DNA from: Candidatus Moraniibacteriota bacterium
GTDB lineage: Bacteria; Patescibacteriota; Minisyncoccia; Moranbacterales; UBA11712
Direction: 5' to 3'
Length of the DNA stretch: 64,000 nucleotides
Assembly (NCBI GenBank): GCA_030679895.1
Contig: JAUXSN010000047.1
Coordinates: 65,328-129,327, forward strand
The notes beneath the pieces are model-generated. The model did not search any database and had not been told where the DNA came from. It was given only the letters and a program-made list of their open reading frames with translations. The position numbers were made by a program, and so were the translations under genes. Shown here piece by piece: positions 2,058 to 52,102 of the stretch (position 1 is the first letter of the stretch; each line of letters starts with the position of its first letter).

Positions 2058-2501
2058 TTAATTTGTTGGATTAAATGTAATGATAGATGACCGATTTATT
2101 TTGTATTTTTTGAATAATTTATCTTCTAAAAAACTACTTATCTTATATGCTTTATGTATCTTTTCCATTAGATCGTCGCGTAATTTATCTATGTCCTTTT
2201 GAGTAAGACCATCCTTCTTAAAGATATCGTGGGCGAGCTTATTTCTAATATCTCTTATTTCGTTAAACACACAGAACTCTGAAGAGTATATTTTTTTGGA
2301 ACACAGCAAACGCTTATTTGCTAAATCAAATGAACGCTCCTTACTTTCATTCACTAACACGCCTTCAATAATTGATGAATGAATAAAAACATCGCGATAT
2401 TGCTTTCTTAGATATTTATCGAACTGTTGAACTACCCAGTCATGATGACTTAGATTTTTAGACATTTCTTTTTTTATATTCTTTATAAACAAAATAACCA
2501 A
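2058..2501 (-). CDS. hypothetical protein with HEPN-like Rx4H motif (RNKLAHD)
   Basis: RNKLAHDIF fits the R-N-x-x-x-H-x-Y/I motif of HEPN/DUF86 (HepT-like) RNase domains. The likely start is the internal MSKNLS. Confidence 0.45.
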   Translation of the reverse strand: MVILFIKNIKKEMSKNLSHHDWVVQQFDKYLRKQYRDVFIHSSIIEGVLVNESKERSFDLANKRLLCSKKIYSSEFCVFNEIRDIRNKLAHDIFKKDGLTQKDIDKLRDDLMEKIHKAYKISSFLEDKLFKKYKINRSSIITFNPTN

Positions 2502-2522
2502 AAAATACTACTATTCCTAAAG

Positions 2523-2735
2523 TTAAACTTTAGGAAATTTTACATCTGGAATATATCCTTGCTCTGAACAGTAGCTAATAGAATATTTATTTGCTTCTTC
2601 TTGACTGTCGAATTGCTTGTCTAGTGAATTTTTTTGAATTTCAGTTTCAGAACCATTATGTGTGATTTTCTTATAACTGGAAATCCATTTACCATTAGTC
2701 AGTTGATAGGAGTTTGGCTCAAAGAATGTTTGCAT
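2523..2735 (-). CDS. small hypothetical protein (70 aa) immediately upstream of the HEPN-like gene
   Basis: ORF only. Its 3-prime end overlaps the palindrome cctaaagttAAactttagg (2526-2544). Confidence 0.3.
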   Translation of the reverse strand: MQTFFEPNSYQLTNGKWISSYKKITHNGSETEIQKNSLDKQFDSQEEANKYSISYCSEQGYIPDVKFPKV

Positions 2736-2829
2736 GTCGAATAAATTAAAAATAATTCAGCTTACGAATCGAATATTTTTTGTTGAGCTATCCGCAGAGC
2801 GTCGAAAAGTGGAAAGTAATTAAAGATTT

Positions 2830-3102
2830 TTATCCTTTCCTTCTTATATGATCAGAGATTTTACCCAATAATTCCGCAATAAAACCCAAAATTGCGCCTA
2901 CTATTGCGCCTTTTCCGATGAGAAACCAATCAAATTTATTTCCTTTAAACAGATAGAAGATAGCAACTATAATTCCAATGATTATGCCAGCCGTTAAACC
3001 GCCCCAAACCGCATTTCGTTTTCGCCAAAAGACTATCAACAAAACAACTGCTACTACTCCAAAAATTATCCAAATGTTAACATTTGACATATTTTTTTGC
3101 AA
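2830..3102 (-). CDS. small integral membrane protein (about 3 TM segments)
   Basis: Hydrophobic stretches IWIIFGVVAVVLLIVF, GLTAGIIIGIIVAIFYLF and GAIVGAILGFIAELL. Confidence 0.5.
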   Translation of the reverse strand: MQKNMSNVNIWIIFGVVAVVLLIVFWRKRNAVWGGLTAGIIIGIIVAIFYLFKGNKFDWFLIGKGAIVGAILGFIAELLGKISDHIRRKG

Positions 3103-3107
3103 AATTT

Positions 3108-3404
3108 TTATAGTTCATTCCCAATCCTTTTTTGACTGTCTTCGTATTTGCCAACTTTCCCATAAAACTTGACTGTTTTGCCGATACTAGGAACATGGAG
3201 TAAAAATGGACCATCAAGTTCATCTTTACCTTTATCAAGAATAGAAACTCCGTCATCAATTATCCAAGCGTCATCTTTTAATAATTGCTCATAAACAAAA
3301 TTGGGATTTTTCGCGGCTTTGCGCCAAAATGACAAATTCCCATGTTTTATGTAAATAAAATAGAAGATTACAGCTAAAATAATTATCCAAATGATTATGC
3401 TCAT
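3108..3404 (-). CDS. N-terminally membrane-anchored hypothetical protein
   Basis: TM helix MSIIIWIIILAVIFYFIYI followed by a soluble domain. Confidence 0.45.
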   Translation of the reverse strand: MSIIIWIIILAVIFYFIYIKHGNLSFWRKAAKNPNFVYEQLLKDDAWIIDDGVSILDKGKDELDGPFLLHVPSIGKTVKFYGKVGKYEDSQKRIGNEL

Positions 3405-3420
3405 ATTTTTTATTATTACT

Positions 3421-3639
3421 TTATGAAATATTCAACACTCTTTTTATAAATCTTCGCAAACTTCTTAACTTCCAAAATATCAAGTCTATATTCTCCTGAT
3501 TCAACTCTTGAAATATAAGATTGGGGGGGCGCTTAACTTTTTTAGCGACTTCGATTTGCCGAAGTCCGGCTTCCAACCTTGCTTTTCGCAATTTTTCGAT
3601 AAACTTGGCGTATTCCTTTGTTTCTATCGCCTTGCCCAT
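3421..3639 (-). CDS. XRE-family helix-turn-helix transcriptional regulator (short)
   Basis: FIEKLRKARLEAGLRQIEVAKKV is a typical HTH_3 (Cro/C1) motif. Confidence 0.55.
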   Translation of the reverse strand: MGKAIETKEYAKFIEKLRKARLEAGLRQIEVAKKVKRPPNLIFQELNQENIDLIFWKLRSLRRFIKRVLNIS

Positions 3640-3734
3640 ATACTATCAAGAATATATACGAAAAGCAAAAATACTGCTTTAAAAAGCAGTATTTTCGTTT
3701 TGGGCGGTTTGTTCCACCCGCAGAAGTTCAACCT

Positions 3735-5873
3735 CTACGATTTCAGAAACATCCTCGCCACTCTCAACTCTTCGTATGAAAATTCATCACCGAGGATTTC
3801 GCGGACGGGCGACAGGGCTGATCCGCCGGATTTTTGGAAGGCGCGCGCTATTTTTTCCATTTTCTTGGCCGGTGGACGCAAATAGTTGATATTGATTTCT
3901 TCTCCGGCACTGGTCAGCTTTTCGATATGCGATGTTATTGTCCCGGGAGTCATGCCTCTCGCTTTCGCCATTTTTTCAATGGACATTTTTTGCTGAACGA
4001 GTTTTTTGGTTTCCTCGTAGGTTGATCCCGCGCGGATCGCTCGGCGCGCCGTGGCTGGTTTTCCCGCCGGAATATTTTTTTCTTCGAGATTATTTTCCTT
4101 GGCATAGGTTCGGATGACCTCCGTGAATATTTTTCCGTATTGCTTCAGTTTTTCCTCGCCTACTCCGCTTATTTTGGAAAAGCTTTCTTCGCTTTGAGGC
4201 AAATACGATGCCATTTGAGTGAGAGCCAAATCGCCGAAGACGACAAAGGGCGGCACTCCTTTTTCGTCCGCTATCTTTTTGCGCAAAAGCCGCAACTGAT
4301 CAAACAATTCTCGATCATAGTCAACTTCAAACGCAGTTCTTTTTCGAATCGCTTCGGCGCCGGATTCGGGCTTAGACAAAAGGATATTTTCCCTATTTTT
4401 GAGAAATTCCTTTCCTCGTTCGCCCAGTCCGAGAACCGGATACTCATCTCCCATTTTTGCGATCAATTTTTTGGAAACCAATTGGCCGATGATATTTCTC
4501 AATTCAACTTTCGAAAAATCGTCCGCAATACCGAATACCGACAATTTTTGATGGCCGCGTTCCGATATTTTTTTATTCTTCGCTCCCGTGAGCACATCGA
4601 TGATATAGCTTGCGCCAAACCGTTCCCCCGTGCGGACAATCGCCGAAATAATTTTTTGGCTGATTACGGTCGCGTCGAATTCAACTTTTGGCGAAAGGCA
4701 AACATCGCACCCGCCGCATTTTTCCGATTCGTACTCCTCGCCGAAATAGGAAAGCAAATGACGGCGGCGGCACGCTGACAACTCGCAGTATTCAACCATC
4801 TGATTGAGTTTCTTGTATGCGTTGTCCCGTTCGCGCTCCTCCTCGATCTGCCGGATAAAAAATTGCTGCTTGATCGTATCCCCGAAAGAATAGAAAAGAA
4901 CGCACCGGCTTGGAAGTCCGTCGCGTCCGGCCCGTCCCGTTTCTTGATAGTATCCTTCAATTGATTTTGGCAAATTATAGTGGACGACCAAGCGCACATC
5001 CGGCTTGTCGATTCCCATCCCGAAAGCGATCGTCGCCACGATGATTCGCGCTTCATCGCGAATGAATTTTTCTTGATTCTTTTTCCGTTTCCCGCTTTCA
5101 AGACCGGCATGATACGCCAAAGCGGAAAAGCCTTCCTCGCGAAGATCCGCCGCCAAATTTTCCGTGTTCTTTCGGGAAAAACAATAGATGATCACTGATT
5201 CGTTTTTGTGCGCTTGTAATATTCCAATCAGCTGGTCATAGGAATCTTTTTTGGGAAGCACCGCGTAGGAAAGATTCGGACGATTGAAACTGGAAATGAA
5301 AACCTTCGCTTGCCCAAGTGACAGTTGGCGAATTATATCCTCCCGCACTTTTTCCGTGGCGGTGGCCGTGAGCGCCATCACCGGAACACCCGGAAAAATA
5401 TTTCGGAGTATTTTCAGATTTCTATAATCGGGACGGAAATCGTGGCCCCACTCGCTGATACAATGCGCTTCGTCAATGGCGATCAAGCTTATTTTCAACT
5501 CCGACAAAAAATTTTGAAAGCCGGGGTTCGCCAATCTTTCCGGGGCGGCGTAAAGAATTTTCAGCTCTCCCGTTCTCGCTTCCGTTTGTGTCCGGTCGAT
5601 CTCCGCGGGACTCAAAGTGCTGTTAATAAACGCGGCCGGAATACCATTGGCTTTGAGAGCATCAACCTGGTCTTTCATGAGAGCGATAAGCGGCGACACG
5701 ACCAGCGTCATTCCCGGCATCTTTAGCGCGGGAAGTTGATAGCAAAGCGACTTTCCCCCGCCGGTCGGCATAAGAACAAACGCGTCTTTTCCAAGAAGTG
5801 CCTGGCTGATAATTTCCTCCTGCAAAGGACGAAAACGATCAAAACCGAAACGATTTTTGAGAAGATTTAGCAT
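3735..5873 (-). CDS. recQ: ATP-dependent DNA helicase RecQ
   Basis: DEAH-box helicase motifs (LVVSPLIALMKDQ, DEAHCISEWGHDFR), zinc-binding RQC cysteines, a C-terminal HRDC-like region. Length 712 aa. Confidence 0.9.
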   Translation of the reverse strand: MLNLLKNRFGFDRFRPLQEEIISQALLGKDAFVLMPTGGGKSLCYQLPALKMPGMTLVVSPLIALMKDQVDALKANGIPAAFINSTLSPAEIDRTQTEARTGELKILYAAPERLANPGFQNFLSELKISLIAIDEAHCISEWGHDFRPDYRNLKILRNIFPGVPVMALTATATEKVREDIIRQLSLGQAKVFISSFNRPNLSYAVLPKKDSYDQLIGILQAHKNESVIIYCFSRKNTENLAADLREEGFSALAYHAGLESGKRKKNQEKFIRDEARIIVATIAFGMGIDKPDVRLVVHYNLPKSIEGYYQETGRAGRDGLPSRCVLFYSFGDTIKQQFFIRQIEEERERDNAYKKLNQMVEYCELSACRRRHLLSYFGEEYESEKCGGCDVCLSPKVEFDATVISQKIISAIVRTGERFGASYIIDVLTGAKNKKISERGHQKLSVFGIADDFSKVELRNIIGQLVSKKLIAKMGDEYPVLGLGERGKEFLKNRENILLSKPESGAEAIRKRTAFEVDYDRELFDQLRLLRKKIADEKGVPPFVVFGDLALTQMASYLPQSEESFSKISGVGEEKLKQYGKIFTEVIRTYAKENNLEEKNIPAGKPATARRAIRAGSTYEETKKLVQQKMSIEKMAKARGMTPGTITSHIEKLTSAGEEININYLRPPAKKMEKIARAFQKSGGSALSPVREILGDEFSYEELRVARMFLKS

Positions 5874-33601: not shown

Positions 33602-35161
33602 CTATTTCACCCAGTACTTATTTTTTATTTCCTTATCTTCCTCTTCTTTTTTCTCCTCAATTTTTTCTTTCGCCATTTCTCGCAGCTTCGGCAGATTTTC
33701 TTTTGACAATTCTTTCGCTCGCTTCAATAATATATTCTTTTTATTTTCCTCGGGATTTTCGATGACTTCCGAAAGCAAAACGTCCAGGATCGCGCCAAGC
33801 ATCGGACCCGGTTGCAATTTCAGTTCTTTCATCAAATCATTTCCGTTCACTTTGAGCATCTTCACCGAAAGCGGGTCGCTCGAAATTTTGTCGACCATAT
33901 ATTTGAAGTGTCGGAGCTTATACGGAACGGCTTTCGGAACGCCCGAACCAAGCCGGTCGCCGACACGAAGGTCAATCAGGTCGTCAATGTTTTCCAGCCC
34001 CACTTTTCGTACCAACCGGCGCACGCTCGAAGCGCCCACTTCGTCGACGTTATAATAGAACATATGGTTGTCGACAAGCAGCCGGACTTTTTTGATAATT
34101 TCCGAAGAATATTTCAATCTCTTCAAGATTTTCTCGACCACCCGCGCGCCGACGTGGTCATGGTTATAGAATGTTGAGTAGGCGCCTTCGCCTCTTTTGG
34201 TTTCAGGCTTGGCGATATCGTGAAACAAAGTCGCAAGGCGCACTTCCAATTTTTCTGAAGGACAATTCTTGAGAGACAAAATGGAATGTTCATAGATGGT
34301 ATAAATATGATGCCGGTTCTGCCCGACGCCGTATCCCTTTTCGAGTTCGGGAATAATATATTGAAGCAATTTCAATTCGCGCAGCAGTTCAATTCCCTCC
34401 GCCGCAAAGTCCGAAACCAAAATTTTGTTCAGCTCATCCTGAATTCGCTCAAGCGCGATGAATTTCAAATTTTTTGCGTTTTTCGCAATCGCTTTTTTTG
34501 TCTTCTCTTCGATCACAAACGGAATTCTCTCGCTCAATTTTCTCGGCCCCGTGGTTCTTTTGATATTTATATCACCGCCAAGCGTAACCGCAAACCGCAC
34601 CGCCCGCATCATCCGCAAAGCGTCCTCATCAAACCGCTCATTCGCGTCCCCCACCGCACGAATTATTTTATTTTTCAAATCTTCCTGACCGCCGAATAAA
34701 TCGATAATCTCATATCTGGGATTTTTCAAGATCCGACCTTGAGGAATTTCCCGATGAATAGTCGGGGAAGGAAAAGGTCGTACCTTAGAAAAATCTATCC
34801 GCAACGCTAGCGCATTGATCGTGAAATCCCTCCTCGACAAATCTTCTTCCAGCGTCTTCGCAAACTTCACCTCATCCGGCCGCCGCTTGTCCGAATATTT
34901 CGATTCAATACGATATGTCGTCACCTCAACAACACCAACTTCTGATTTCACACCAACGGTGCCGAATGCATTTTCATAAAAACTATCGGGAAACAATTTA
35001 GCAACTTCTTCCGGCTTCGCGTTCGTCGTCACGTCCCAATCCTTCGGTTCAACATCCATGAGAAGATCCCTCACGCACCCGCCCACAACAAAAGCCTCAA
35101 AACCAGCGGCTTCAAGTTTCTGGATAATTTCGATTATGGGTTTTGGAATTTTCTTGATCAT
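33602..35161 (-). CDS. cca: CCA-adding tRNA nucleotidyltransferase with HD domain
   Basis: Pol-beta NTase head (VVGGCVRDLLM...DWDV), poly(A)-polymerase-like body, HD motif (HDIAKP). KE-rich C-terminal tail. Confidence 0.85.
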   Translation of the reverse strand: MIKKIPKPIIEIIQKLEAAGFEAFVVGGCVRDLLMDVEPKDWDVTTNAKPEEVAKLFPDSFYENAFGTVGVKSEVGVVEVTTYRIESKYSDKRRPDEVKFAKTLEEDLSRRDFTINALALRIDFSKVRPFPSPTIHREIPQGRILKNPRYEIIDLFGGQEDLKNKIIRAVGDANERFDEDALRMMRAVRFAVTLGGDINIKRTTGPRKLSERIPFVIEEKTKKAIAKNAKNLKFIALERIQDELNKILVSDFAAEGIELLRELKLLQYIIPELEKGYGVGQNRHHIYTIYEHSILSLKNCPSEKLEVRLATLFHDIAKPETKRGEGAYSTFYNHDHVGARVVEKILKRLKYSSEIIKKVRLLVDNHMFYYNVDEVGASSVRRLVRKVGLENIDDLIDLRVGDRLGSGVPKAVPYKLRHFKYMVDKISSDPLSVKMLKVNGNDLMKELKLQPGPMLGAILDVLLSEVIENPEENKKNILLKRAKELSKENLPKLREMAKEKIEEKKEEEDKEIKNKYWVK

Positions 35162-49938: not shown

Positions 49939-50403
49939 ATGGAAAAAATATACCAGTACAACCGCAAAGTCAGACAATCAAGAAAGTGTCCCGATCTCAA
50001 AAGCGGTGATATTGTCAAAATCCATCGCAAAATAAAGGAAGGGGACAAAGAGAGAATCCAGATCTTCGAGGGCATTATCGTAAGCATAAAGGGAAAGCAA
50101 AGCTCTTCCCCGATGGTTACCGTAAGGAGAGTTTCTTTTGGCACGGGAGTTGAAATCACCGTTCCCTTGTATTCTCCCGCGATTTCGAAGATTGAAGTCG
50201 TCAAAAGAGCCAAGGTCCGGCGTTCTAAATTATACTACCTGCGAGAAAAGGGGTTCCGCCTTTCGAAACTGAAAATGAAAGAGCTTGGCCAGTTTGTGGC
50301 TGAAGAGAAAGAACCGGAAGCGGAGAAACAAGAATCTGAAGAAAAAAAGGGGGAACAGCCGAAAAAGACGGAAAAAGAATTATCCGACAAAGAAAAAAAG
50401 TAG
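49939..50403 (+). CDS. rplS: 50S ribosomal protein L19 with a KE-rich C-terminal extension
   Basis: PDLKSGDIVKIHRKIKEGDKERIQIFEGIIVSIKG...VRRVSFGTGVEITVPLYSPAISKIEV matches L19. Confidence 0.85.
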   Translation: MEKIYQYNRKVRQSRKCPDLKSGDIVKIHRKIKEGDKERIQIFEGIIVSIKGKQSSSPMVTVRRVSFGTGVEITVPLYSPAISKIEVVKRAKVRRSKLYYLREKGFRLSKLKMKELGQFVAEEKEPEAEKQESEEKKGEQPKKTEKELSDKEKK

Positions 50404-50425
50404 CTATTATCCCAAATTACTTTTA

Positions 50426-50509
50426 GCCGTGGTGCCGGAATCGGTAGACGGGCCAGCTTGAGGGGCTGGTGTCCATTAGGGCGTGGGAGTTCGAGTCTCC
50501 CCCACGGCA
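50426..50509 (+). tRNA. tRNA-Leu(GAG), class II
   Basis: Acceptor GCCGTGG/CCACGGC with A73. Anticodon stem ccagc/gctgg with loop TTGAGGG. Long variable arm. T-loop GAGTTCGAGTCTC. Confidence 0.8.
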
Positions 50510-50591
50510 CACTCGGGAAAGGGGTCGGGAAAACGGGAGTTTTCCCGCGGCGGAATTATTCAAACCGAGGGGTTTGAAGGAGTGCAACGAC

Positions 50592-50665
50592 GGGCGCGTA
50601 GCTCAGTTGGTTAGAGCATCTGTCTTACAAACAGAGGGTCAGAGGTTCGAGTCCTCTCGCGCCCA
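50592..50665 (+). tRNA. tRNA-Val(TAC)
   Basis: GGGCGCGTAGCTCAGTTGGTTAGAGC... with anticodon loop CTTACAA, T-loop GGTTCGAGTCC and A73. Confidence 0.85.
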
Positions 50666-50768
50666 CATTCGCCGGGCTAGCTTCAGCCATAGGCTGATCC
50701 GCTTACGGCGGACAGTGGTAGAGTCCGAGCAGAAAATGCGCGCACTTTAAAAATAAAAAATGATATTT

Positions 50769-51082
50769 GCCTGGGTAGCTCAGTGGTAGAGCAGAGGACT
50801 GGTTTTCGGTCCGTCTCGCGGTAACGCGGGAATGAAAATCGGGTGAATTCGAGGAAACCTAAATTCAAATCAGGAAGATTTGGCTAAGGCAATCTCGAGC
50901 CAAGCTTCGATGGGCAATAGTTATCGAAGAAGGTGTAGAGACTAGCAAGTGAGTCCCAACAATAACCTTGCAAAAGCGCCCGATATCCCAAAGAGGGATA
51001 ATGAAATAGTCCGATCCTTAGGGAAACCTAAGTACGAAAAAGGAAAATCCTTGTGTTGGCAGTTCGATTCTGCCCCCAGGCA
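50769..51082 (+). tRNA. tRNA-Phe(GAA) interrupted by a group I intron in the anticodon loop
   Basis: 5-prime exon GCCTGGGTAGCTCAGTGGTAGAGCAGAGGACT (to U33, 50800). 3-prime exon GAAAATCCTTGTGTTGGCAGTTCGATTCTGCCCCCAGGCA (from 51043). Joined, the exons give a canonical tRNA-Phe close to the E. coli tRNA-Phe. Confidence 0.8.
50801..51042 (+). mobile_element. group I intron (IC3, Azoarcus/cyanobacterial tRNA-intron type), 242 nt, no ORF
   Basis: Internal guide GGTCC (50808-50812) pairs with exon GGACU via a U-G wobble. Terminal omega-G at 51042. Core near-identical to the Azoarcus intron (GAGCCAAGCTTCG...GAAGGTGTAGAGACTAG...; GAATTCGAGGAAACCTAA). Confidence 0.8.
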
Positions 51083-51208
51083 CAAATTGCGGTTAACTAA
51101 CGGAACGCTTCACGTTAGGATTAATAATGTAAAACTATTTTTCAGAATTATTGGCTGGATTGACGGTCTCAAGCAATATATGCTTTCTTGATATAATTCT
51201 AATGCAAT

Positions 51209-51280
51209 GCGGGTATCGTATAGTGGCTATTATATATCCTTGCCAAGGATAAGATACGGGTCCGACTCCCGTTACCCGCT
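51209..51280 (+). tRNA. tRNA-Gly(GCC)
   Basis: Acceptor GCGGGTA/TACCCGC with U73. Anticodon stem tatcc/ggata with loop TTGCCAA. Confidence 0.8.
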
Positions 51281-51292
51281 CATTTCGGAAAA

Positions 51293-51325
51293 GAAAATCC
51301 CCGCCTGTGCGGGGATTTTCTTTTG
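51293..51325. terminator. bidirectional terminator between the tRNA cluster (+) and the pseudouridine synthase gene (-)
   Basis: aaaatccccgc-ctgt-gcggggatttt flanked by A and T runs. Confidence 0.75.
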
Positions 51326-51328
51326 AAG

Positions 51329-52018
51329 CTATTGTTTCAGATAAGTTTCGAATTCTTCAGGCGGATCGCTTTTGAAAAAATATTTCTGGCCATCCGGACC
51401 TAAAAATGAGATCGATTCGGCATGCAAAAACATTCTGGGAGTTCCGATATTTTTATACTCTTTGAAGGTGTATTTTTTATCCCCGACGATCGGATGTCCG
51501 ATGGAATGAAGATGCACCCGGATTTGATGCGTCCGGCCGGTTTTGGGAGAAACTTCGAGCAGGGAATAATCGTCCCATTCATCCAAGACTTTATAATAAG
51601 TCAGCGAATATCTTTCTTTTCTCACATTTATTTTCCCCCTCACCAACGCTTGTTTTCGAAAGTCTCTTTTTGATCTTCCCATTTCTCCTTCAACTTTTCC
51701 CTGCTTTTCCTTGAATTTCCCGAAAACCAGCGCTAAATATTTTTTTTCTATTTTTCTGTTCTTGAATAAATCCTTCAGGTACTCAAAAGTTTTTTGATTT
51801 CTTGCCACAAGCAGAACGCCCGAAGTTTCCTTGTCCAGGCGGTGAACTATTCCCGGGCGAATTATTTTATCATCGCCGACATTTTTGATTTCCGGAAATT
51901 CTTCAATCAAAAAATCAACCAAAGTTTTTTCTCTTGCTCCGATGCCTTCATGAACCGAAAGTCCGGCTGGCTTGTCGACGACAATTATATTTTCGTCTTG
52001 ATGAATAATCTTCAGCAT
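51329..52018 (-). CDS. RluA-family pseudouridine synthase
   Basis: HRLDKETSGVLLVAR catalytic Asp motif. Start trimmed to MLKIIHQ because the longer ORF overlaps tRNA-Leu(TAG). Confidence 0.8.
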   Translation of the reverse strand: MLKIIHQDENIIVVDKPAGLSVHEGIGAREKTLVDFLIEEFPEIKNVGDDKIIRPGIVHRLDKETSGVLLVARNQKTFEYLKDLFKNRKIEKKYLALVFGKFKEKQGKVEGEMGRSKRDFRKQALVRGKINVRKERYSLTYYKVLDEWDDYSLLEVSPKTGRTHQIRVHLHSIGHPIVGDKKYTFKEYKNIGTPRMFLHAESISFLGPDGQKYFFKSDPPEEFETYLKQ

Positions 52019-52021
52019 TGA

Positions 52022-52102
52022 TGGGTGAGAGAGGATTCGAACCTCCATGGGTTGCCCCGCTAGCTCCTAAGGCTAGTGCGTATACCATTTCGCCACTCAC
52101 CC
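52022..52102 (-). tRNA. tRNA-Leu(TAG), class II
   Basis: Acceptor GGGTGAG/CTCACCC with A73. Anticodon stem ctagc/gctag with loop CTTAGGA. Long variable arm. T-loop GGTTCGAATCC. Confidence 0.8.

Follow-up and report, generated by a model that had tools for sequence, protein, structure and literature searches.

A group I intron with a P7.1-type hairpin in the anticodon loop of tRNA-Phe(GAA) in a Moraniibacteriota genome

The stretch of DNA analyzed here (64 kb at its full length and called the window below) carries a tRNA-Phe(GAA) gene at positions 50769 to 51082 that is split by a 242-nt group I intron, at positions 50801 to 51042, between U33 and G34 of the anticodon loop. The gene is made up of three parts.

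50769 to 50800, forward strand: exon 1, comprising the acceptor 5' strand, the D arm, the anticodon-stem 5' strand, C32, and U33, and ending in ...GAGGACU (ARAGORN, joined and genomic sequence)
50801 to 51042, forward strand: group I intron of 242 nt, from G50801 to ωG51042 (RF00028; ARAGORN i(33,242); minimum free energy [MFE] z-score of −3.66)
51043 to 51082, forward strand: exon 2, comprising the anticodon GAA, A37, A38, the anticodon-stem 3' strand, the variable loop, the T arm, the acceptor 3' strand, and the discriminator A

Exon 2 opens with GAAAAUCC and does not encode CCA at its end, while the intron begins with GGUUUUCGGUCC and has G51042 as its last base. When the exons (50769 to 50800 and 51043 to 51082) were joined, ARAGORN recognized a 72-nt canonical cloverleaf, tRNA-Phe(GAA), with the anticodon loop CU-GAA-AA. 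In the genomic sequence with introns allowed, the same program reported tRNA-Phe (gaa) i(33,242) at 50769-51083, with the intron after position 32/33. A boundary shifted by +1 gives an identical mature tRNA because the intron and exon 2 both start with G, and the 33/34 boundary is preferred since it alone places U at position −1 in the U·G wobble at the 5' splice site. The Rfam model RF00028 (Intron_gpI), which has a gathering score of 50 bits, matched positions 50792 to 51033 over its full length (model positions 1 to 253) with 87.3 bits and an E value of 6.8e-21, and this was the sole non-tRNA Rfam match in the window. An earlier note, made from the sequence alone, had described a group I intron after U33 of this gene, an exon 1 ending in GAGGACU, an exon 2 resuming 242 nt further on, and a canonical tRNA-Phe on joining, and had named a covariance match to RF00028 as a check; each of these points was borne out, far beyond chance expectation.

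With default settings ARAGORN found 13 tRNAs in the 64-kb window, tRNA-Phe not among them, and the Rfam tRNA model gave no match to the interrupted tRNA-Phe gene. Because both of these miss the gene, such a genome would be scored as being without tRNA-Phe, and its completeness would be underestimated. The interrupted gene was the only tRNA-Phe in the 64-kb window, and the cell must splice this RNA to make the tRNA-Phe, the only one as far as the window shows. A Pfam search of the three open reading frames (ORFs) that overlap or adjoin the intron returned no domain, which indicates that there is no homing endonuclease, as the earlier note had also stated. A promoter and terminator scan of positions 50250 to 51450 found none. 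A GC-rich hairpin with a T-run at 51294-51325, seen by eye, lies below the T-count rule of the terminator scan.

The precursor segment folds 3.7 standard deviations better than its shuffles, and the unconstrained MFE structure already holds P2, P3, P4, P5, P5a, P6a, P8, and P9. For comparison, 77 homologous tRNA-Phe introns were aligned with MAFFT and examined against a 70-pair model. The helices and other structural parts are given below in window coordinates, together with the extent of pairing and of double changes among relatives.

50796 to 50812, forward strand: P1, formed by exon GGACU (50796-50800) and guide GGUCC (50808-50812), with the wobble U50800·G50808 marking the 5' splice site
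50803 to 50807, forward strand: UUUUC, the 5' portion of the internal guide, which forms P10 (5 bp) with the five opening bases of exon 2, GAAAA (51043-51047)
50815 to 50830, forward strand: P2 hairpin (50815-20/25-30) with a GUAA (GNRA) tetraloop at 50821-50824; 97.4% paired, with double changes in 6/6 pairs
50839 to 50845, forward strand: P3 5' strand, pairing with 50977-50983; 99.6% paired, three pairs with double changes
50849 to 50898, forward strand: region of P4 (50849-54/50893-98); 99.8% paired, co-varying at three pairs
Between P4 and P5, forward strand: J4/5, AAA
50858-62/50885-89, forward strand: P5, with a receptor-like motif, CCUAAA...UAAGG; predicted by MFE
50866-71/50877-82, forward strand: P5a; predicted by MFE
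50899-900/50933-34, forward strand: P6
50905-11/50923-29, forward strand: P6a; 96.8% paired, with double changes in 7/7 pairs
50912 to 50922, forward strand: loop L6a, GGGCAAUAGUU
50938 to 50944, forward strand: P7 5' strand, GAGACUA, in which G50938 and 50940-44 pair with 51007-12 and A50939 is bulged; 100% paired, invariant
50945 to 50971, forward strand: P7.1-type hairpin of 27 nt (50945-49/67-71), between the P7 5' strand and P3', with the stem GCAAG/CUUGC and a 17-nt loop, UGAGUCCCAACAAUAAC; stem 98.7% paired, three pairs with double changes
50977 to 50983, forward strand: P3 3' strand, CGCCCGA, partner of 50839-50845
50985 to 50999, forward strand: P8 hairpin, AUCCC/GGGAU (50985-89/95-99), with the loop AAAGA; 78.9% paired, of varying length, with double changes in 5/5 pairs; present in the MFE structure
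51007 to 51012, forward strand: P7 3' strand, UAGUCC, partner of 50938 and 50940-44
51017 to 51032, forward strand: P9 hairpin, CUUAGG/CCUAAG (51017-22/27-32), capped by a GAAA tetraloop (51023-51026); among the 42 sequences having P9, 98.8% paired and with double changes in 6/6 pairs
51042, forward strand: ωG, the final intron base; G in 79/79 tRNA-Phe introns with the boundary set at U33/G34

The hallmarks of group I introns are thus present, namely, P1 with its U·G wobble, P10, ωG, and the P3-P8 and P4-P6 domains with the P3/P7 pseudoknot. Across the 77 tRNA-Phe introns the 70-pair model was 93.0% paired, compared with at most 53.1% when the partners were slid, and the co-variation score was 0.411, compared with 0.158 ± 0.004 for shuffled alignments (0/500). 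Changes on both sides were seen at 46 of the 70 pairs; every pair co-varies in P2, P6a, P8, and P9, as do three pairs each in P3, P4, and the extra hairpin. P5 and P5a are variable in length, align poorly, and are about 60% paired. That J6/7, P7, and the P7.1 loop do not vary is subject to ascertainment bias, since the pattern used to find the relatives was derived from the window intron, and P7 and the P7.1 loop, being invariant parts of that pattern, carry no co-variation evidence.

The guide region changes together with the tRNA that it interrupts. The U·G wobble of P1 was found in 77/77 aligned tRNA-Phe introns, and two P1 pairs co-vary with the anticodon stem of the tRNA (GC/CG in 47/29 and AU/CG in 42/35). 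P10 is 98.4% paired, with a UA-to-CG double change in 34 sequences that tracks A37/G37 of the tRNA. Exon and guide occur as GGACU/GGUCC, GCCCU/GGGGC, or CGCCU/GGGC, and the P10 alternatives are GAAAA/UUUUC and GAAGA/UCUU[CU]. As read from these sequences, the guide has co-evolved with each host tRNA, and such joint change is what selection for accurate splicing predicts. The earlier note had pointed out both the U·G wobble by which the guide pairs to exon GGACU and the terminal G of the intron, and both are confirmed.

These observations bear on whether the gene still works. It could in principle be a decaying pseudogene whose intron no longer splices, with tRNA-Phe supplied by another gene outside the window, and the view of the genome is limited to 64 kb. 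However, the core elements are all intact and complementary (the U·G of P1, 5/5 pairs of P10, ωG, and the P7 bulge), joining the exons yields a perfect cloverleaf, and relatives keep the arrangement while showing compensatory changes, implying that splicing is selected for. In addition, one complete genome with this intron class has a single tRNA-Phe gene by all three tools, and it is rare for an intact copy to occur alongside an interrupted one of the same anticodon (Nakagawa et al. 2026, PMC13011429). We consider decay highly improbable and the locus very probably a functional tRNA-Phe(GAA) gene interrupted at U33/G34 by an ORF-less, 242-nt self-splicing group I intron.

Group I splicing follows a standard two-step pathway. 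In the folded precursor, exon GGACU would pair with guide GGUCC to form P1, setting U33 in the U·G wobble, and an external guanosine would attack after U33. The adjoining guide bases UUUUC would hold GAAAA of exon 2 in P10 and so align exon 2, ωG51042 would replace the cofactor in the G site in P7 (by analogy the G-binding helix), and ligation of the exons would give the anticodon loop CU-GAA-AA. The structure carrying out these steps would be a compact Azoarcus-like core, consisting of P2 and P9 with GNRA caps, P3-P8, and P4-P6, plus the P7.1-type hairpin. The GNRA loops L2 and L9 may dock as they do in Azoarcus. A strict 11-nt GAAA-receptor test of the receptor-like P5 was positive in 12/39 P9-bearing introns and in 1/40 P9-less introns; because this enrichment is weak, we go no further than to infer docking of L9 with P5.

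Catalysis by the window intron may be expected by analogy with its relatives. The tRNA-Asn intron of GCA_016700035.1 spliced itself accurately in vitro, and its ωG-to-C mutant did not and stalled (Nakagawa et al. 2026, PMC13011429). Since this relative has the same P7.1 motif, self-splicing of the window intron is supported by homology. A different view is that splicing in the cell needs a protein cofactor or chaperone, the RNA being unable to splice on its own. For many group I introns splicing in vivo does depend on proteins, and the peripheral domains of the window intron are small; against this, introns of the size of that in Azoarcus are very stable. Two Patescibacteria tRNA introns, including one that bears the same P7.1 motif, also spliced protein-free in vitro (PMC13011429). 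A requirement for protein therefore appears improbable to us, and autonomous self-splicing remains the reading that we favor.

The distribution of the intron was assessed by scanning one genome per GTDB species with a motif that combined J6/7-P7 and the hairpin loop. The same tRNA-Phe(GAA) 33/34 arrangement was found in at least 78 further species-level genomes. Among the 120 matches listed, ARAGORN with introns allowed assigned the host tRNA as Phe(GAA) in 79, Asn(GTT) in 10, and "Thr(TGT)" in 6, the last being, according to the literature, usually Asn with a wrongly set boundary. The share of 79/120 for Phe is biased by ascertainment because the search pattern was derived from the window intron; the absolute number of at least 78 species is unaffected by this bias. 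With the boundary set at U33/G34, U at position −1 and ωG were present in 79/79 cases (78 loci and the window), in which the intron lengths ranged from 200 to 439 nt, and 12 of the 15 relatives tested passed the RF00028 gathering score. The hosts among the 120 matches listed were nearly all CPR/Patescibacteria metagenome-assembled genomes (MAGs), with labels that included Saccharibacteria, Moranbacteria, Falkowbacteria, Doudnabacteria, Berkelbacteria, Gracilibacteria, Peregrinibacteria, Yanofsky-, Wolfe-, and Harrisonbacteria, and others. Titles that named Gammaproteobacteria or Bdellovibrionales are doubtful, since those contigs share long protein-coding flanks with CPR-titled contigs.

A tRNA-Phe(GAA) intron at 33/34 has already been listed, with its sequence, for Doudnabacteria GCA_016699995.1 (Nakagawa et al. 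2026, mSystems, PMC13011429, Table 1/S3). That survey covered complete genomes only and contained one Phe case among 95 Patescibacteria (PMC13011429). Bacterial tRNA intron classes had previously been raised from 4 to 21 (Williams, bioRxiv 2020). The earlier note had called an occurrence in tRNA-Phe and in a CPR-like genome unusual, and in view of the published Doudnabacteria case and the at least 78 further species this does not hold. Judging from the loci recovered, the tRNA-Phe 33/34 class is much commoner in draft genomes than in the published complete-genome survey, and the family of P7.1-bearing tRNA introns is spread widely across Patescibacteria (CPR), occupying 33/34 in tRNA-Phe and 35/36 in tRNA-Asn. 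The intron is thus of a kind that is already published (2026) and common in CPR bacteria, and it is not a new kind of element. The family offers a natural collection, rich in members, of very small self-splicing ribozymes with guides that have co-evolved with their tRNAs.

That the window itself comes from a CPR-like genome, as the earlier note had suggested, agrees with its flanks and with the order of its tRNA genes. Among the loci compared, the best flank match was to a Moraniibacteriota MAG (L097), with 71.5% DNA identity over 2.2 kb that include the trigger-factor gene; this MAG has a second matching block downstream and the same interrupted tRNA-Phe. The whole window gene has 72 to 78% DNA identity to many loci. 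The tRNA cluster Leu(GAG)-Val(TAC)-Phe*-Gly(GCC), in which the asterisk marks the interrupted gene, recurs in Moranbacteria-like loci, and the window intron belongs to a P9-bearing subfamily that is found in Moranbacteria/Falkowbacteria-like genomes. It is possible to suppose that the intron arrived recently and horizontally, by reverse splicing or homing, rather than having long resided in the CPR tRNA-Phe gene by vertical descent. P7.1-bearing relatives are in fact spread over several phyla and over several different tRNAs, among them Phe, Asn, Gln, and Tyr, which implies that transposition between sites has happened. However, the intron has no endonuclease ORF, the closest syntenic genome among the loci compared has an intron at the same site, the cluster order is common to other Moranbacteria-like loci, and the guide sequences follow the local tRNA sequence. 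A recent arrival seems unlikely in our estimation, and long vertical residence may be the better account of this locus.

The earlier note had assigned the intron to the Azoarcus, or IC3, type. The stretches on which this rested (GAGCCAAGCUUCG, GAAGGUGUAGAGACUAG, and GAAUUCGAGGAAACCUAA) are present and core strings are common to IC3 introns, so that the resemblance stands; the IC3 assignment does not, given the 27-nt hairpin and the alignment scores. In the seven IC3 references (that of Azoarcus and six taken from the supplement of Nakagawa et al. 2026), the P7 5' strand runs straight into P3' without a hairpin, whereas the window intron has its 27-nt hairpin at this place. The spacing from P7 to P7' is 61 nt in the window intron and 25 to 42 nt in the five of seven IC3 references in which it was measured by regular expression. 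The IA1/IA2-labelled references, the window intron, the Doudnabacteria Phe intron, and the Asn intron have spacings of 59 to 76 nt, all with the hairpin. Global alignment scores of the window intron were 163 to 202 to the IA1/IA2-labelled and Patescibacteria Phe/Asn introns and 121 to 133 to the seven IC3 introns. The closest labelled relatives of the window intron are therefore IA1/IA2 and not IC3, within a reference set that holds seven IC3 introns and a small IA group (3 IA1, 1 IA2, and 1 IA3).

One might still hold that the intron belongs to IC3 (the type of Azoarcus and cyanobacterial tRNA-Leu) and that the extra hairpin is no more than an insertion particular to its lineage. Such a placement would account for GAAGGUGUAGAGACUAG, GAGCCAAGC, and GGAAACCUAA, which are common to the window intron and the IC3-labelled introns, as well as for the GNRA loops of P2 and P9, the short P5 with its receptor-like CCUAAA...UAAGG, and the lack of P5abc and P2.1. 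It is at odds with the P7.1-type hairpin between P7 and P3', the wider P7-to-P7' spacing, and the lower scores to IC3 than to the IA1/IA2-labelled and Patescibacteria Phe/Asn introns, and published subgroup covariance models placed zero Patescibacteria tRNA introns in IC (Nakagawa et al. 2026, PMC13011429). We regard it as having little probability. Like the IA1/IA2-labelled tRNA introns, the window intron has one co-varying hairpin between P7 and P3', whereas classical IA introns have two (P7.1 plus P7.1a or P7.2), and for this reason we speak of an Azoarcus-like core plus a P7.1-type element. An intron of this description, which current literature groups with IA1/IA2, would seem to be the most suitable reading of the sequence, rather than plain IC3.

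The loop of the extra hairpin suggests a further contact within the fold, which would occupy the following positions.

50953 to 50957 with 50912 to 50915, forward strand: candidate loop-loop pairing of L7.1 G(U)CCC with L6a GGGC, predicted for the window by homology

Among the genome loci listed, with hairpins read by eye, CCC in L7.1 occurred with GGG in L6a in 98/98 relatives, and CCU occurred with AGG in 12/12. Labelled introns from other phyla have the combinations ACCCAAG/CUUGGGU, GACC/GGUC, and GCCC/GGGC. An independent metagenome scan for the UGAGGA loop variant, with 120 loci listed that were mostly tRNA-Asn, included the cognate pairs GAGA/UCUC, GGGG/CCCC, UGGUUU/AAACCA, AAGAAU/AUUCUU, GACGAC/GUCGUC, and UCCAC/GUGGA. 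Over the 60 distinct loop segments of this metagenome set, the cognate complement had a mean of 4.12 bp, compared with 2.96 ± 0.10 bp when permuted (0/20000); co-variation of the two loops is thus strong in this set.

It is therefore likely that the P7.1-type loop, UGAG(U)CCCAACAAUAA, forms a real Watson-Crick pairing with the P6a loop in this family, and in the window we infer an L6a-L7.1 contact of 3 to 4 bp. Such a contact would probably act as a clamp between the P4-P6 and P3-P9 domains and thereby tie the two core domains together. A literature search for a P6a/P7.1 contact found no description; since the older subgroup IA literature lay outside that search, newness of the pairing is not claimed. 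It may perhaps be hitherto undescribed, although we lean slightly toward an earlier description, and that the pairing is at once real in the family and undescribed is rather doubtful. If both were true, it would be a new tertiary module, one that would help to explain the activity of tRNA introns of 200 to 250 nt with few peripheral elements.

Among known introns, that of Doudnabacteria GCA_016699995.1 resembles the window intron in its tRNA-Phe host, its U33/G34 site, its phylum, its core strings, and its P7.1 hairpin with the loop GUGAGCCCAACAAUAA, and 154 of 201 aligned positions are identical. It differs in its length (211 nt, compared with 242 nt) and in being without the P9 hairpin. It represents a GAAGA/P9-less subfamily, with the guide GGGCC for exon CGCCU, whereas the window intron falls in the P9-bearing subfamily. 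The Asn(GUU) 35/36 intron of GCA_016700035.1 shares with the window intron the motif AGAGACUAG...GUGAGCCCAACAAUAA, the overall core, a GNRA-capped P9, and the absence of an ORF, and its 157 identical positions amount to 65% of the length of the window intron. However, it is located in another tRNA at a site two bases further 3' (35/36), and its J6/7 is GGUUCAGAGACUAG.

The IC3 introns of Azoarcus tRNA-Ile(CAU) and of cyanobacterial tRNA-Leu(UAA) and tRNA-fMet are, like the window intron, small and situated within the anticodon loop, with GNRA loops on P2 and P9 and with J6/7-P7 and P4-P6 sequence in common; those in tRNA-fMet and some Ile2 genes are also at 33/34. Unlike the window intron, they have no hairpin between P7 and P3', most have a longer P9.0/P9 3' domain, and their similarity to it is lower. 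The tRNA-Phe(GAA) intron of Elusimicrobiota GCA_023213235.1 has the same host tRNA species as the window intron but is located at 31/32 and is labelled IA3 (Table S5, PMC13011429). It also lacks the P7.1 motif and has low similarity to the window intron, with a score of 111.5.

An extra pairing between P7 and P3' was reportedly recognized by Michel and Westhof in 1990 in phage introns of subgroup IA (T4 td and Twort). The T4 td and Twort introns have two hairpins at this place (P7.1 and P7.2) and are located in protein-coding genes. The window intron, in contrast, has one hairpin, with a conserved loop of 16 to 17 nt, and is located in a tRNA gene.

The loop of hairpin P6a (L6a) and that of the P7.1-type hairpin, an extra hairpin between the 5' strand of P7 and P3', were found to be complementary and to co-vary among the 120 loci listed from a separate metagenome scan for the UGAGGA variant of the P7.1 loop (L122 to L241), and a contact of this kind is predicted in the window. 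The two sides of the candidate contact in the window are:

50912-50915, L6a side of the loop-loop contact
50953-50957, loop of the P7.1-type hairpin

Among the listed metagenome loci, a set independent of the genome-scan loci, cognate L6a/P7.1-loop complementarity averaged 4.12 bp versus 2.96±0.10 bp for permuted pairs (0/20000). The pairing is a candidate kissing contact joining the two core domains; no description of it was found in the searchable literature.

The P9 hairpin was absent from 35 of the 79 tRNA-Phe introns (matches listed plus the window intron), such as those at loci L002, L010, L033, and L036. In 23 of these 35, the intron tail (~10 bases) pairs over 5 bp, with co-variation, to the 3' strand of the anticodon stem in exon 2 (CAGCU/GGCUG, AUGCU/GGCAU, and GACGC/GCGUC), and thus the tail mimics the exon-1 strand of that stem. 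The window intron is a member of the P9-bearing subfamily rather than of the P9-less one.

Some of the UGAGGA-type introns may sit in additional, undescribed host tRNAs. With provisional boundaries, ARAGORN suggested tRNA-Asn(GTT) as host at 44 of the listed metagenome loci, followed by Gln(CTG) at 6 and Lys(CTT), Tyr(GTA), and Thr(CGT) at 2 each; 60 loci had no ARAGORN host call.

The interrupted tRNA-Phe gene of the window does not encode CCA, and its order among neighboring tRNA genes is also kept in Moranbacteria-like loci. The features concerned are:

50426-51281, same-strand cluster of tRNA-Leu(GAG), tRNA-Val(TAC), interrupted tRNA-Phe, and tRNA-Gly(GCC)
33602-35161, minus strand, gene resembling those of CCA-adding enzymes, with a PolyA_pol head, tRNA_NucTran2_2, and HD domains
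51294-51325, GC-rich hairpin AAAAUCCCCGC-CUGU-GCGGGGAUUUU, then CUUUU

The hairpin lies directly 3' of tRNA-Gly, ahead of a convergent open reading frame (51329-52048), and is likely a bidirectional terminator. It was not called in a terminator scan of the region because the T-run rule was unmet.

CPR-type interrupted tRNA-Phe genes also occurred on MAG contigs whose record titles give "uncultured Gammaproteobacteria" or "Bdellovibrionales" (L012, L014, L018, L021, L026, L044, L069, L078, L095, L114, and L119). These titles look wrong, since the contigs have long protein-coding flanks in common with CPR-titled contigs. Separately, a Falkowbacteria MAG (L099) carries a full 16S rRNA gene (2324-3799) ~1.1 kb upstream of its interrupted tRNA-Phe, which could serve for phylogenetic placement of that intron host.
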